From a virus, in the UHGV virus genome UHGV-0089955: DNA of 17,733 nucleotides; one strand, 5' to 3'. The notes below the pieces were generated by a model. The model saw only the letters and a list, made by a program, of their open reading frames with translations. It had not been told where the DNA came from and searched no databases. The position numbers were made by a program, and so were the translations under genes. Positions 2,953 through 6,419 of the stretch are shown here, one piece after another (the first letter of the stretch is position 1; the number at the start of each line of letters is the position of its first letter).

Positions 2953-2956
2953 ACTC

Positions 2957-2988
2957 AAAAAAAAGCCTCTACTAAAATTCGTAGAGGC
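2957..2988 (-). terminator. intrinsic terminator on minus strand (GCCTCTAC / GTAGAGGC hairpin + U8)
   Basis: 8-bp stem 2965-2972 / 2981-2988 with 8-nt loop; A8 at 2957-2964 on the + strand gives U8 after the hairpin on the minus strand; convergent with the + strand terminator at 2926-2952. Confidence 0.6.
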
Positions 2989-3014
2989 CTGAATACATTT
3001 CCAATTTTCCACAT

Positions 3015-3220
3015 TATGCATGATGCCGGGTGCCTCCCGGTAGATTCAGCCTGGCAAACTAAATCTGCGGATTGTGACCATCGTAATGGAGCCTTGCCAG
3101 TCGCCCCACCGCTTAGGGGGATTCATCATGCGGAGTGATTTTTAACAAATTCCCCACCAGAAAAACAATAATCACCTTCCTGAATTGTGAGGTATTTAAA
3201 AATTTCACCAGATAACTGAT
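3015..3220. repeat. copy B of the duplicated structured module (micro-ORF homologue 3135-3215, GTG start, frame change relative to copy A)
   Basis: Same hairpin and conserved blocks as copy A; the translated frame NKFPTRKTIITFLNCEVFKNFTR parallels copy A NKKDKTKSTLNSLKCEEFNIFT. Confidence 0.6.
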
Positions 3221-3294: not shown

Positions 3295-3371
3295 TGGCGC
3301 GTTGTACTGGATTCGAACCAGTGACCGATTACTTAGAAGGCAATTGCTCTGTCCGGCTGAGCTAACAACGC
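3295..3371 (-). tRNA. argO: tRNA-Arg, anticodon UCU (reads AGA), 77 nt, CCA encoded
   Basis: Hand-folded cloverleaf: acceptor GCGTTGT/ACAACGC, D-arm GCTC..GAGC, anticodon loop CUUCUAA, T-arm ACTGG-TTCGAAT-CCAGT, 3' GCCA. Third gene of an ileZ-argN-argO-type phage array. Confidence 0.85.
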
Positions 3372-3384
3372 AGAATACCGATAA

Positions 3385-3461
3385 TGGACCGCCATCGAGG
3401 ACTCGAACCCCGCGCAACCAGCTTCGAAGGCTGGCGCTCTATCCTGATGAGCTAATGGCGG
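3385..3461 (-). tRNA. argN: tRNA-Arg, anticodon UCG (reads CGA), 77 nt, CCA encoded
   Basis: Hand-folded cloverleaf: perfect 7-bp acceptor CCGCCAT/ATGGCGG, D-arm GCTC..GAGC, anticodon stem CCAGC/GCTGG with loop CUUCGAA, T-arm CGGGG-TTCGAGT-CCTCG. Confidence 0.8.
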
Positions 3462-3468
3462 TATGTGA

Positions 3469-3545
3469 TGGTGGCCCTTGCTGGATTTGAACCAGCGACC
3501 TGGCGATTATAACTCGCTCTCATCATTTAGCTAAAATGGCTGGGG
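3469..3545 (-). tRNA. ileZ: tRNA-Ile-like gene in the ileZ position; non-canonical, possibly a pseudo-tRNA (anticodon region TTATAA, candidate anticodon UAU)
   Basis: 3' half is canonical (T-arm GCTGG-TTCAAAT-CCAGC, acceptor 3' strand AAGGGCC, discriminator A, CCA). The 5' acceptor strand has two mismatches, and relative to the E. coli tRNA-Ile2 layout as I remember it about 4 nt of the anticodon-stem 5' strand are missing, so I could not fold a full cloverleaf. 5' boundary uncertain. Confidence 0.45.
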
Positions 3546-3665
3546 GAGTGATGATACATCAGTCACATTAAACATGAAAACAAATCGTTTTAGGTGAAAT
3601 ACAAAAAGAATAGTGATTAAATATCAAATGGATATGCTTTAAATCTAACCACAGTAAGGACGAGT

Positions 3666-4610
3666 ATGATTTTTCTCAAGAATGGCGAAAGTTTTATTCG
3701 CGTGAATGACTGGGCAGAAATTCAGGCGAGAGAGTCTTACTATCCCAAATTAGAGTTAAATGATCAGCAACTCTCTGACGTTTTTGGTTACTACGATGAC
3801 CTACCAGAGGAAATTCCATGTGGAAAATCAAATTGCCGCAAAGGGCATAAAAAGGGATTTCTGGTAGTTACGAAAGAAGGATTTGAAACGAATATCGGCC
3901 ATGTATGTGGAACTAATGTTTTTGGTATAGCATTTGATAATTTAGCAATAGAACTTTGCCGAAAAGCAGATTTCCATCGCTTACTTACCGCACTTAAAGA
4001 GGCAAAAGATGATATTTTTAGCTATTACAAACTCAAAGCCAAAATCGAATCTGGGCGTCCATCACTAACTGAGGTTGCTCATAGAATACTTGACATGAAA
4101 GACCCTAAAATCATCGGGCGTGCGGCTTATCAAACATTGAAAAAGATGGCTGCTTCTGGTGATGGGCGTGTTTTCCGCTCAAGATTAAAAAATACAGAAG
4201 AGCTAGAACTGGACGAAATTATGTCCCAGAAGCAAACAAGCGACTCAGCTCCAAAAGTTAACAACAAAAACAAAACCGTAAATGAACTTATTGGGGTAAT
4301 ACAATACCCTGAATGCTTGCTGAATGATTATGACATTGCTCTTCTTTATGAAAGAGATATAAAAATGGTTCTGGAAAAATTAAACAAATGTACCCCAGAT
4401 GAATTGACTGAAAGAGAGGTGTTGTCTTTTGGAATAAAGGTTTCAAGATTAAGAGAACGCTTTAACTTTGCTCAGGAACGCTTAGAAAAATCCAGGGTTT
4501 TTGCAACAAGAGAAAACCTTAAACCTTTACGTGCATTACTTAACATTCAGAAATCTGTAAGCAATAAAGACAAATTACTATTTAAGAAATTTATGGAAAA
4601 TTTACCATAA
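3666..4610 (+). CDS. hypothetical protein, 314 aa, AT-rich orphan (moron) gene; possible small Zn-binding module near the N-terminus
   Basis: Long ORF with SD (AAGGA) 7 nt upstream of ATG 3666; followed at 4618-4635 by a GC hairpin; composition visibly more AT-rich than neighbours; convergent with Q. No recognisable catalytic motif. Confidence 0.7.
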   Translation: MIFLKNGESFIRVNDWAEIQARESYYPKLELNDQQLSDVFGYYDDLPEEIPCGKSNCRKGHKKGFLVVTKEGFETNIGHVCGTNVFGIAFDNLAIELCRKADFHRLLTALKEAKDDIFSYYKLKAKIESGRPSLTEVAHRILDMKDPKIIGRAAYQTLKKMAASGDGRVFRSRLKNTEELELDEIMSQKQTSDSAPKVNNKNKTVNELIGVIQYPECLLNDYDIALLYERDIKMVLEKLNKCTPDELTEREVLSFGIKVSRLRERFNFAQERLEKSRVFATRENLKPLRALLNIQKSVSNKDKLLFKKFMENLP

Positions 4611-4635
4611 TTAAAAAACCCGCTATAAAGCGGGT
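4611..4635. terminator. hairpin terminator, strongest on the minus strand (candidate tR' downstream of PR'), also closes the + strand 314-aa gene
   Basis: Stem ACCCGCT (4618-4624) / AGCGGGT (4629-4635), loop ATAA; on the minus strand the hairpin is followed by UUUUUUAA (4611-4617); on the + strand a looser T-rich tract follows (4636-4650). Confidence 0.55.
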
Positions 4636-4677
4636 TCCGTGTTAATTTTTATATTGGCGCTAAACCCCATAATTAAA

Positions 4678-4707
4678 ATGATACAAGACAATTTTATGCA
4701 AAGTCAA
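4678..4707 (-). promoter_or_regulatory. candidate late promoter PR' (-35 TTGACT, 18-bp spacer, -10 TATCAT) immediately downstream of Q
   Basis: Minus-strand reading TTGACT-ttgcataaaattgtcttg-TATCAT; placed between the Q stop (4747) and the hairpin at 4611-4635, the arrangement expected for a Q-dependent PR'/qut/tR' unit. Confidence 0.4.
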
Positions 4708-4746: not shown

Positions 4747-5562
4747 TCAGTAACTCGTTGCCTTCTCAAATTCTCTAGCCGCATGCCGCTCACCTTGATG
4801 CAGGATATCAATCAATTTTTCATAGAATGGTTTCCAATTGCGCGACCATGAAGACTGGTGCAGATCGGGAATGTATATTTGAATAGCTCGATGAACATTA
4901 GCTGATTTGATAGATACGAATCCCTTTCCACTACAACGCTCGCAGATTTTAAACACTGGCACACCACGCTCGCTTGTGGCTTTGCGGTCCAGTACCTCTC
5001 CCTTTCCACCACAACGACACCTGGCACTTATCACTCCCTTCCCTTTACATACATCGCAAACGACTGGTACAACTTCCGTTACCTCTGTCCATCTTTCCCA
5101 GTCTGACGGTCGAACAGCACGGGAGCGACTGGCCCAATATGGTGCTTTACCCCATGGGTATGAAACCTTACGAATGACCTGCTTACGGGGTGTTAGTCCG
5201 GTACCACTGCAACTATGGCATGTTACGCTGGTGGCCGCCGATCGGGAATACTCAGCAAAAGCAAACTGAGCCAGTACCAGCATACACCAGCCAAATTCAC
5301 CACCAGCTGCTTTACGCACATTCTTCGGTGCAATTTCCATCGCGTGACGCGCCAGCGCCTGGACTGCCATCTGCTCATCAGTCTTGCTGATACCGGCCTT
5401 CCCGAAGAAGGCCGCCAGGCCAAACCGCTCACGATTACTGGTGGTACCAATAGCCGCCATAACATCGGTGCCTGTAAGACGTTCCGGAGAGGTTCCTTTC
5501 ACATCGTCGCCGATATACATTCCCTGAGGACTGAAGTATTTTAGCGATGCCTCAAGCTTCAT
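4747..5562 (-). CDS. late-gene antiterminator Q-like protein (271 aa) with repeated CxxCxGxG zinc-finger motifs
   Basis: Four Cys pairs (CHSCSGTG, CDVCKGKG, CRCGGKG, CERCSGKG) resembling DnaJ-type zinc fingers; last gene of the replication/nin block and immediately upstream of the PR'-like promoter and tRNA array; start overlaps the upstream stop (TAATG). Confidence 0.6.
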   Translation of the reverse strand: MKLEASLKYFSPQGMYIGDDVKGTSPERLTGTDVMAAIGTTSNRERFGLAAFFGKAGISKTDEQMAVQALARHAMEIAPKNVRKAAGGEFGWCMLVLAQFAFAEYSRSAATSVTCHSCSGTGLTPRKQVIRKVSYPWGKAPYWASRSRAVRPSDWERWTEVTEVVPVVCDVCKGKGVISARCRCGGKGEVLDRKATSERGVPVFKICERCSGKGFVSIKSANVHRAIQIYIPDLHQSSWSRNWKPFYEKLIDILHQGERHAAREFEKATSY

Positions 5563-6419
5563 TATTCACACTCCCCAACCAGATTGAGAATGACCGCTGC
5601 ACCGTCGTCTTCCATGCATTCACCCTTACCACTTGCCAGAAACCAGCGGCACACCTCCACGGCTTCAGCGCGTGTCACCGGTTTGATGGTTGCCAGCAAT
5701 TTTTCAAGGTAGCGCTCGCGGTCATATACCGATTCGTGATGCTCAGAGTAACCAAACTCATCGCCCTGTTCTTTAGTTGCAGTGTGGCGAACACTGTAGA
5801 GCCAGTCCCAGTAAACGAACTCGCGAACAACATCAGACAGCGTATAAGGCTCAGGCAGCACATCGCGATATCCATCAACAAATGCCCGACGCTGTTCATC
5901 AATTTCGTTCATGCGGCTGCCGCCAATGCTTCCGGCTTTTTTCTCTGCCGCAGTCCAGCCCCAGAGATGATCGTTGATAAATTTCTGGGAAGACCTGATG
6001 ACCCGCTCTGCTTCCACATCTTCGAGCGCTGCTTCATAGCTACCAAACGTAGCCCTGACTGATGCCGCTTTTTTGATGTTCTCCCGGGCGTTCCTGATAA
6101 CCTGCGCAGGGTTATCCATGCCGATGATGCCGAACGCAACCTGGAAAGGTTCGTAACCATTCGCCAGCAGATAACGCGAATAGCGTTCCTGAGCCTCTTT
6201 TGGGGAAATTTTAATTTTCACCAGCGCAGCCTCAGCAGCATCCAGATGTGCGGGTTCGTTCAGACGGATAACCTCCAGCACCCAAAGATAAGCATCAGTC
6301 TGCTTATGCCCGGTGATTCTCCGTTGCTCTGGCAGGGGCTTGATGTTTGCGAGGGCGGAGCTGTACGCTGCCGTCGGGATGGTGAATAGTGCTTTATGTT
6401 CGTTATTATCAGTACGCAT
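5562..6419 (-). CDS. hypothetical protein, 285 aa, translationally coupled between primase and Q (nin-region position)
   Basis: ORF with TAATG stop-start overlaps at both ends (6419 and 5562); no motif recognised. Confidence 0.65.
   Translation of the reverse strand: MRTDNNEHKALFTIPTAAYSSALANIKPLPEQRRITGHKQTDAYLWVLEVIRLNEPAHLDAAEAALVKIKISPKEAQERYSRYLLANGYEPFQVAFGIIGMDNPAQVIRNARENIKKAASVRATFGSYEAALEDVEAERVIRSSQKFINDHLWGWTAAEKKAGSIGGSRMNEIDEQRRAFVDGYRDVLPEPYTLSDVVREFVYWDWLYSVRHTATKEQGDEFGYSEHHESVYDRERYLEKLLATIKPVTRAEAVEVCRWFLASGKGECMEDDGAAVILNLVGECE

Follow-up and report, generated by a model that had tools for sequence, protein, structure and literature searches.

A conserved antisense gene beside the Q antiterminator of lambdoid prophages is a candidate prophage defence gene

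The window analysed here, a 17,733-nucleotide stretch of the virus genome UHGV-0089955, is part of a prophage and covers the early-right and late-left regions of a lambdoid phage. To the left of a cI-like HTH+S24 repressor gene (10139-10831, plus strand), the minus strand carries genes for a DEAD-box helicase (7389-9047), a toprim primase (6419-7387), a 285-aa protein just upstream of Q (5562-6419), and a 271-aa Q antiterminator (4747-5562; PF03589, E = 4.6e-51). Two tRNA-Arg genes with anticodons tct and tcg (3295-3461), which belong to the late transcript, and a nanS-p-like esterase gene (334-2322) lie farther left on the same strand. An ORF at 3666-4610 on the plus strand starts with ATG and encodes a protein of 314 aa (36.2 kDa, pI 8.8). 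A prophage of Escherichia coli SCU-106 is 99.9% identical, and its RefSeq annotation lists this ORF as a "hypothetical protein" and as the sole plus-strand CDS in the left half. An earlier note on this DNA had thus correctly described the ORF as the only plus-strand gene there, placed between Q and the tRNA array and convergent with Q. Its further statements that the ORF is more AT-rich than the flanking phage genes and has its own Shine-Dalgarno sequence also held: GC content is 36.6% for the ORF versus 50.6% for Q and 47.8% for the whole window, and TAAGGA occurs at 3655-3660 (plus strand), 5 nt before the ATG.

The surroundings of the ORF carry other features of interest. The 285-aa protein has a sub-threshold match to UPF0020 methyltransferases, is named "hypothetical" or "HTH domain-containing" in RefSeq, and is swapped in related phages for DUF968, HNH, or NinG/NinH modules. 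The interval from the tRNA genes to the esterase, which is the place of stx in Stx phages, looks empty but is taken up by two copies of the STnc100 sRNA family (RF02076) on the minus strand, at 2545-2757 and 2953-3161, scoring 147 and 122 bits (gathering score, 47).

The ORF at 3666-4610 is a real gene. A stop-free run of 314 codons at the base composition of this gene has a probability of ∼2e-11 per start. Pairwise comparisons with close and distant alleles gave dN/dS values of 0.06 to 0.10, a range from which the pair of the window and L019 was excluded for an alignment out of register. Truncated or split copies in E. coli M8, phage phi467, and locus L036 might be taken as signs of a spurious or decaying ORF without function, but the dN/dS values, the improbable length, the confident AlphaFold model described below, and full-length conservation of the family down to about 21 to 25% identity all speak against this idea. 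The conservation data already refute it, leaving it next to no probability, and we regard the ORF as very probably a functional gene.

The gene was found in 22 of 5426 complete E. coli genomes, from isolates of human, livestock, and food origin. In a related prophage (L115), whose Q match covers 64% of the query at 84% identity, no family gene is present in the slot and the order is Q, a short methyltransferase pseudogene, and then ileZ-argN-argO. The deviant GC content, the sparse distribution in E. coli, and the L115 slot together mark the gene, as judged from genome comparison, as an accessory unit.

A predicted promoter for the gene spans 3594-3622 (plus strand) and consists of GTGAAA, a 17-nt spacer, and an extended -10 element, TGa-TTAAAT. 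Seven loci encoding proteins with only 59 to 63% identity retain this GTGAAA-17-TGaTTAAAT arrangement. A generic promoter scan did not list the candidate at 3594-3622, and the promoter therefore stays a prediction. The -10 element, the leader, and the Shine-Dalgarno sequence are held within a block of ∼55 nt (3611-3665, plus strand; GATTAAATATCAA...TGCTTTnAATCTAACCA...AAGG) that is also kept among alleles with 59 to 63% protein identity.

A GC hairpin at 4615-4638 begins 5 nt past the stop codon and had been taken to close the gene. A hairpin is indeed there, but it was called as a terminator on the minus strand, where U6 follows the stem and an A-run lies on the other side. On the plus strand the T-run stands apart from the stem, making the hairpin a weak terminator in this window. 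The equivalent hairpin in relatives is symmetrical, its stem being flanked by an A-run and a T-run, which suggests that it acts as a bidirectional terminator there. A PR'-like late promoter (TTGACT-18-TATCAT, 10 of 12 matches) lies at 4678-4707 on the minus strand, about 40 nt past the Q stop codon, and its -35 block, TTGACTTTGCATAAA, is conserved beside related Q genes elsewhere. The minus-strand U6 and the PR'-like promoter ∼60 nt upstream indicate that the hairpin is primarily the late-operon terminator tR', and we read the layout as the classical order of Q, PR', short leader, and tR'.

In Stx phages, PR' is constitutive and is terminated just downstream in lysogens, yielding the StxS RNA (PMC7547250). 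A leader RNA of about 60 nt is predicted between PR' and tR' in the window (4609-4671, minus strand), and, like StxS in Stx phages, it would be constitutive in lysogens. The 3' end of this RNA is complementary to the last bases and the 3' untranslated region of the antisense gene. At the other end of the gene, directly upstream, a degenerate ileZ-like tRNA remnant (3472-3540, minus strand; 32.6 bits, just above threshold, with no call by ARAGORN) forms the left border of the inserted block. The phage record ON470586 annotates this remnant as a pseudo-tRNA, and the ileZ copy in 62%-identical relatives looks better preserved when judged by eye.

The gene had been described as an orphan, which can no longer be maintained. 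Residues 1-313 of the product match positions 1-308 of the 309 positions in the PHROG 7003 profile (E = 4.1e-118). This PHROG has no assigned function, so membership supplies a name only. A word-indexed protein search recovered 13 close clusters with 59 to 98% identity in E. coli, Kluyvera, and Ewingella, and an HMMER profile search of 1.84 billion representatives returned 550 clusters, counted at 50% identity, with E ≤ 1e-3, of which 292 reached E ≤ 1e-10. Nearly all of these are ∼300 aa long and are matched over their full length. Neither the focal protein nor 76 diverse relatives had a Pfam-A or NCBIfam match above the curated threshold. In PADLOC-DB v2.0.0, which covers defence families described up to 2023, the focal protein matched none even at E ≤ 1, and the 76 relatives gave no defence match beyond two isolated hits with E of about 2e-3. 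Three family profiles found no relative among PDB sequences, and BFVD contained none of the focal protein. Clear homology to a characterised structural or metabolic protein, which the earlier note had named as evidence against its proposal, was thus found in none of Pfam, NCBIfam, PADLOC, PDB, and BFVD. Literature searches by accession, by Stx2e/Q context, and for lambdoid defence hotspots returned nothing on the focal protein; the Brenes and Laub 2025 screen was outside their scope. On this sequence evidence the family appears to be large and uncharacterised, with PHROG 7003 the single membership that can be asserted.

Source records name the family members "hypothetical protein," the exception being one UniRef cluster automatically and without support labelled "transcriptional regulator." This label, the human, livestock, and food isolates, the moron architecture of the gene, and the use of the same slot for stx, nanS-p, and porin-type cargo would fit a lysogenic-conversion factor, one that alters the physiology or virulence of the host and plays no part in conflict between phages. 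The family ranges, however, over beta- and gammaproteobacteria of soil and water and over marine bacteria, which argues against a virulence role specific to one host niche, and the focal protein has neither a secretion signal nor a known effector domain. We therefore consider lysogenic conversion unlikely.

Invariant or near-invariant residues in 138 full-length relatives are Y43, C52, G53, C57, H61, G64, G72, T75, N76, G78, C81, G82, F86, F90, E179, and N284. Conservation is complete for C52, C57, and C81 and 99% for H61, which makes these four residues candidate metal ligands. The earlier note had proposed a zinc module on the spacing CGKSNC...H...HVCG; three cysteines and the first histidine of that proposal stand, but its second histidine, H79, is kept only within the enterobacterial clade and is replaced elsewhere by K, N, S, G, or Q. 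The metal site is therefore likely C52-x4-C57-x3-H61...C81. The only invariant polar residues outside it are Y43, T75, N76, E179, and N284.

An AlphaFold model built with 14 close sequences had a pLDDT of 56, while alignment of 76 diverse relatives raised this to 95.5 with a pTM of 0.85. In the model, about residues 1-86 form a beta-rich domain at the N-terminus, whose strands span 2-6, 9-13, 36-43, 64-69, and 74-77, and a helix starts at residue 79. All four candidate ligands fall within this domain, and the order of a knuckle at 52-61, the strands at 64-69 and 74-77, and the helix from 79 resembles a treble-clef-like Cys2-His-Cys zinc finger, a class read from predicted secondary structure. 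In the rest of the model, long helices come first, followed by a beta hairpin (168-174 and 204-211) whose strands flank the variable linker (189-203), and finally by a bundle of C-terminal helices. The helical character that had been suspected after the N-terminal module thus applies to the C-terminal two thirds of the model. The fold is without detectable relatives and is apparently new. The protein is hydrophilic (GRAVY of -0.51), with an acidic N-terminal domain (pI 5.3) and a basic remainder (pI 9.4).

Two assignments for the N-terminal domain were considered and rejected. One of nine N-terminal domains gave a Pfam match to RIG-I_C-RD (E = 0.027, 15 bits against a cut-off of 25.6, in a search at E ≤ 10), but an N-terminal profile run against all PDB sequences retrieved no RIG-I-like chain, and a likeness to the C-terminal domain of RIG-I, MDA5, or LGP2 was dropped. 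An HNH or His-Me finger nuclease would have a beta-beta-alpha-metal arrangement, a catalytic His ending strand 1, and a match to an HNH model, features that do not describe this protein. No nuclease, NTPase, HTH, or membrane signature was found in it, and Pfam, NCBIfam, and PADLOC bear out the earlier statement that it has no catalytic motif. Since it lacks a transmembrane segment and any nuclease, NTPase, or other effector signature and has few invariant polar residues, an effector mechanism cannot be named.

The position of the gene is shared by its relatives. Of 27 loci from IMG/VR, 24 have sequence beyond the 3' end of the gene; 23 of these 24 (all but L032) carry a convergent Q of 271 to 278 aa that starts 112 to 140 nt downstream of the gene, and annotated E. 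coli records likewise have a convergent Q beyond it. Relatives with 21 to 63% identity lie antisense beside Q in E. coli, Kluyvera, Ewingella, and Serratia, in line with the earlier assignment of the gene to a lambdoid slot antisense to the late operon. The gene and Q diverge jointly (59 to 63% identity for the gene, 70 to 80% for Q), while the genes farther out change on both sides. The Ewingella allele opposes a Q of another family, PF06323, and the 26%-identical Serratia allele, which lies before the holin, opposes a DUF1133 protein that we take to be Q-like. By these sequence comparisons the family recurs opposite four or more Q lineages or alleles, in convergent orientation and always against the predicted direction of late transcription.

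Exchange among E. coli prophages has kept this arrangement together. In eighteen E. coli genomes the match to the window Q is confined to its 5' two thirds, at ≥98% identity in 11 of them and at 84 to 93% in the others, and the mosaic breakpoint lies at about 4919, inside Q. The 3' third of Q is exchanged as a single unit together with PR', tR', and the antisense gene, as would be expected if the C-terminal part of Q co-varied with its cognate qut/PR' site. In one of the 18 genomes, E. coli M8, the replaced segment has a truncated family allele (21% identity, hhalign probability of 99.9%) that is likewise convergent with Q, here with an alternative Q 3' end. The same slot in the Stx2f phage phi467 contains an allele that is annotated as two CDS and has 31% identity across the N-terminal 132 residues.

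In several Shiga toxin prophages the gene lies between Q and the toxin genes. It precedes stx2i in E. coli CFIAFB20180511 and stx2e in STEC276 (L002 7128-8072 and L003 7122-8066, respectively), and the diverged phi467 allele (L117 5001-5875) lies between Q and stx2f. With the gene antisense in this interval, the toxin transcript has to cross it. A 63%-identical allele (L004 8001-8963) was observed with no Q nearby, among Ail/Lom, autotransporter, PsiA, and ParE genes and large gene-free gaps, a setting that probably represents a decayed prophage or a region of plasmid origin.

Other relatives occupy the immunity region. Pseudomonas prophages carry the homologue immediately downstream of an HTH+S24 repressor gene and in the same orientation. 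Its counterpart in Klebsiella phage ST13-OXA48phi12.2, Pseudomonas aeruginosa phage D14S, and a Serratia fonticola prophage is found in the interval that separates the leftward early operon from the repressor, oriented against the lytic operon. The family thus recurs, by gene order, in two prophage locations that are expected to be transcribed in dormancy, against lytic transcription in both.

These placements bear on the main rival to a defence role, which holds that the gene regulates the late switch of its own phage or the maintenance of lysogeny, for instance by dampening Q action or PR' read-through in lysogens and hence Shiga toxin production. The repeated presence of the family at the Q/PR'/tR' junction, beside four or more Q lineages or alleles, its co-inheritance with the Q 3' end and PR', the adjacency of other relatives to cI, its position between Q and stx2e, stx2i, or stx2f, and the basic C-terminal domain are all consistent with such a regulator. 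On the other hand, no HTH or other DNA-binding model matched the protein, the related L115 prophage works without the gene, and many relatives lie on chromosomes outside any phage, with neither Q nor a repressor near. We judge a role in the late switch to be improbable.

Outside prophages, the neighbours of family members include integrases, transposases, resolvases, Phd/YefM and ParDE, TnpB, Gabija, and a type I restriction endonuclease. These chromosomal loci were obtained with a subfamily alignment against genomes; the close-family profile gave no confirmed locus in genome contigs, its loci being confirmed on viral contigs. In Rhizobacter sp. Root1238, a complete Gabija pair lies directly upstream of a family member and divergent from it (L070 2098-5792; GajB, E = 4e-243; GajA, E = 8e-236), and in another locus (L090) a type I restriction endonuclease gene lies two genes downstream. 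Such defence neighbours occur in a few of about 45 loci, an anecdotal raw count. In a distant chromosomal subgroup, the stop codon of the homologue is overlapped by the start of a 158-aa gene (L041 7969-8445, L042 5622-6098); this gene had no Pfam match and may be a partner specific to the subgroup. Pseudomonas agarici LMG 2112 has four copies of a distant homologue with identical tblastn statistics on four ∼10-kb contigs (L107 to L110), which suggests a repeated mobile element or prophage.

The earlier note had raised the questions of whether the gene always occupies the slot between Q and the lysis genes and whether it travels with a partner. The Q slot is recurrent, but other relatives sit beside cI-type repressors or outside prophages, and no partner gene was conserved across 61 further beta- and gammaproteobacterial loci. 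Taken over these loci, the gene appears conserved, solitary, and mobile, occurring also in small mobile or defence islets. The same distribution weighs on the possibility that it is a counter-defence protein or an early helper of the lytic cycle, expressed on infection from its own promoter. Carriage by a phage, a predicted promoter and terminator of its own, and a product that looks like a non-enzymatic binder would suit such a helper. Nevertheless, the gene opposes every neighbouring lytic operon, the Pseudomonas relative is co-oriented with the repressor, and many chromosomal copies lie outside phages, which makes a counter-defence role very unlikely.

We propose that the gene is a self-contained moron inserted immediately downstream of tR' and pointing against the late operon. 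Its own weak extended -10 promoter would drive the gene, and the transcript would stop at the shared hairpin. In a lysogen, PR' transcripts would halt at tR' and leave expression of the gene undisturbed, whereas after induction Q-modified RNA polymerase would pass tR', cross the gene in the antisense direction, and shut it off. Termination at tR' in the lysogen and Q-dependent antisense read-through on induction would therefore confine expression to the prophage state, much as for genes placed in the cI operon. The family would then have two placements that couple it to dormancy, one in the repressor operon and one antisense just behind the late terminator. Expression during lysogeny as an accessory gene is, from this arrangement, likely.

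What the protein does in the lysogen can be proposed more tentatively. It would bind a phage or host macromolecule instead of catalysing a reaction, and Q-driven late transcription would switch the gene off and so spare the phage's own lytic growth. Our best overall explanation, put forward with less than even confidence, is a lysogen-expressed, Q-antisense-silenced, non-enzymatic factor of superinfection exclusion or abortive infection. Genomic context strengthens the defence interpretation, which we offer as a candidate role and still short of a probable one. It is rather doubtful that the gene represents the first known member of a widespread and hitherto undescribed single-protein immunity family, in which a zinc-site sensor and a helical domain of new fold are tied to dormancy by gene placement.

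If the protein is a defence or exclusion factor, it would represent a new non-enzymatic family of ∼550 clusters at 50% identity across the Proteobacteria, with an unmatched fold, and silencing by antisense late transcription would be a simple principle of self-immunity. The gene could also modulate toxin output in Stx2e, Stx2i, and Stx2f phages, where the toxin transcript crosses it, and its position between the Q switch and stx in these prophages may bear on toxin expression. Should the protein show no activity in phage assays, the constancy with which the gene pairs with the Q/PR'/tR' junction would still want an explanation.

Several known systems share parts of this design. Morons are a class of lambdoid phage genes defined for HK97 and HK022, with lambda bor and lom and the lc porin gene of PA-2 as examples. 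Like these, the focal gene is autonomous, with a deviant base composition and presence/absence polymorphism among similar prophages, lies in the late region with a predicted promoter and terminator of its own, and is presumably expressed from the prophage. Its product differs in being a cytoplasmic protein with a candidate zinc site, while those of the morons are envelope proteins. The slot differs as well, since it is no free-for-all but holds one family in one exact antisense position abutting tR' in very diverged phages.

The exclusion genes of the rexAB and sieB type, from the lambda immunity region, offer a second comparison. Pseudomonas relatives of the focal gene lie downstream of a cI-type repressor gene and co-oriented with it, the Klebsiella, P. 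aeruginosa, and Serratia relatives lie in the immunity region, and expression of the family is predicted only in the prophage state. Unlike rexAB and sieB, the focal gene lies in the Q-lysis region and not in the cI operon, and its product has no sequence or fold similarity to theirs. RexAB moreover comprises two genes that are co-transcribed with cI and includes a membrane protein, whereas the focal gene is single and has no membrane component.

BstA (PMC8585504) and HepS (PMC13043305) are single-protein abortive-infection factors of prophages. The focal gene resembles theirs in being solitary and prophage-borne and in encoding about 300 aa, and in each case the phage's own growth must be spared, for which antisense silencing by late transcription is the solution proposed here. 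The focal protein differs from BstA in having no KilA-N match in the Pfam search and from HepS in having no HEPN domain, and from both in having no recognisable effector domain and in being known from sequence alone. Because the defining domains were searched for and found absent, the gene falls outside the rexAB, sieB, BstA, and HepS families.

The stx operons provide the closest positional parallel: they too lie immediately downstream of PR'/tR' and by the ileZ/argN/argO tRNA genes, but on the sense strand and under Q control, whereas the focal gene is antisense and is crossed by the late transcript. The likeness to morons, rexAB, sieB, BstA, and HepS is, by analogy, one of placement and autonomy. 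Set among these systems, the gene at 3666-4610 is best described, from the comparisons made here, as an accessory gene of prophages and a candidate for defence, whose product has an apparently new fold and whose antisense position is conserved to an unusual degree.
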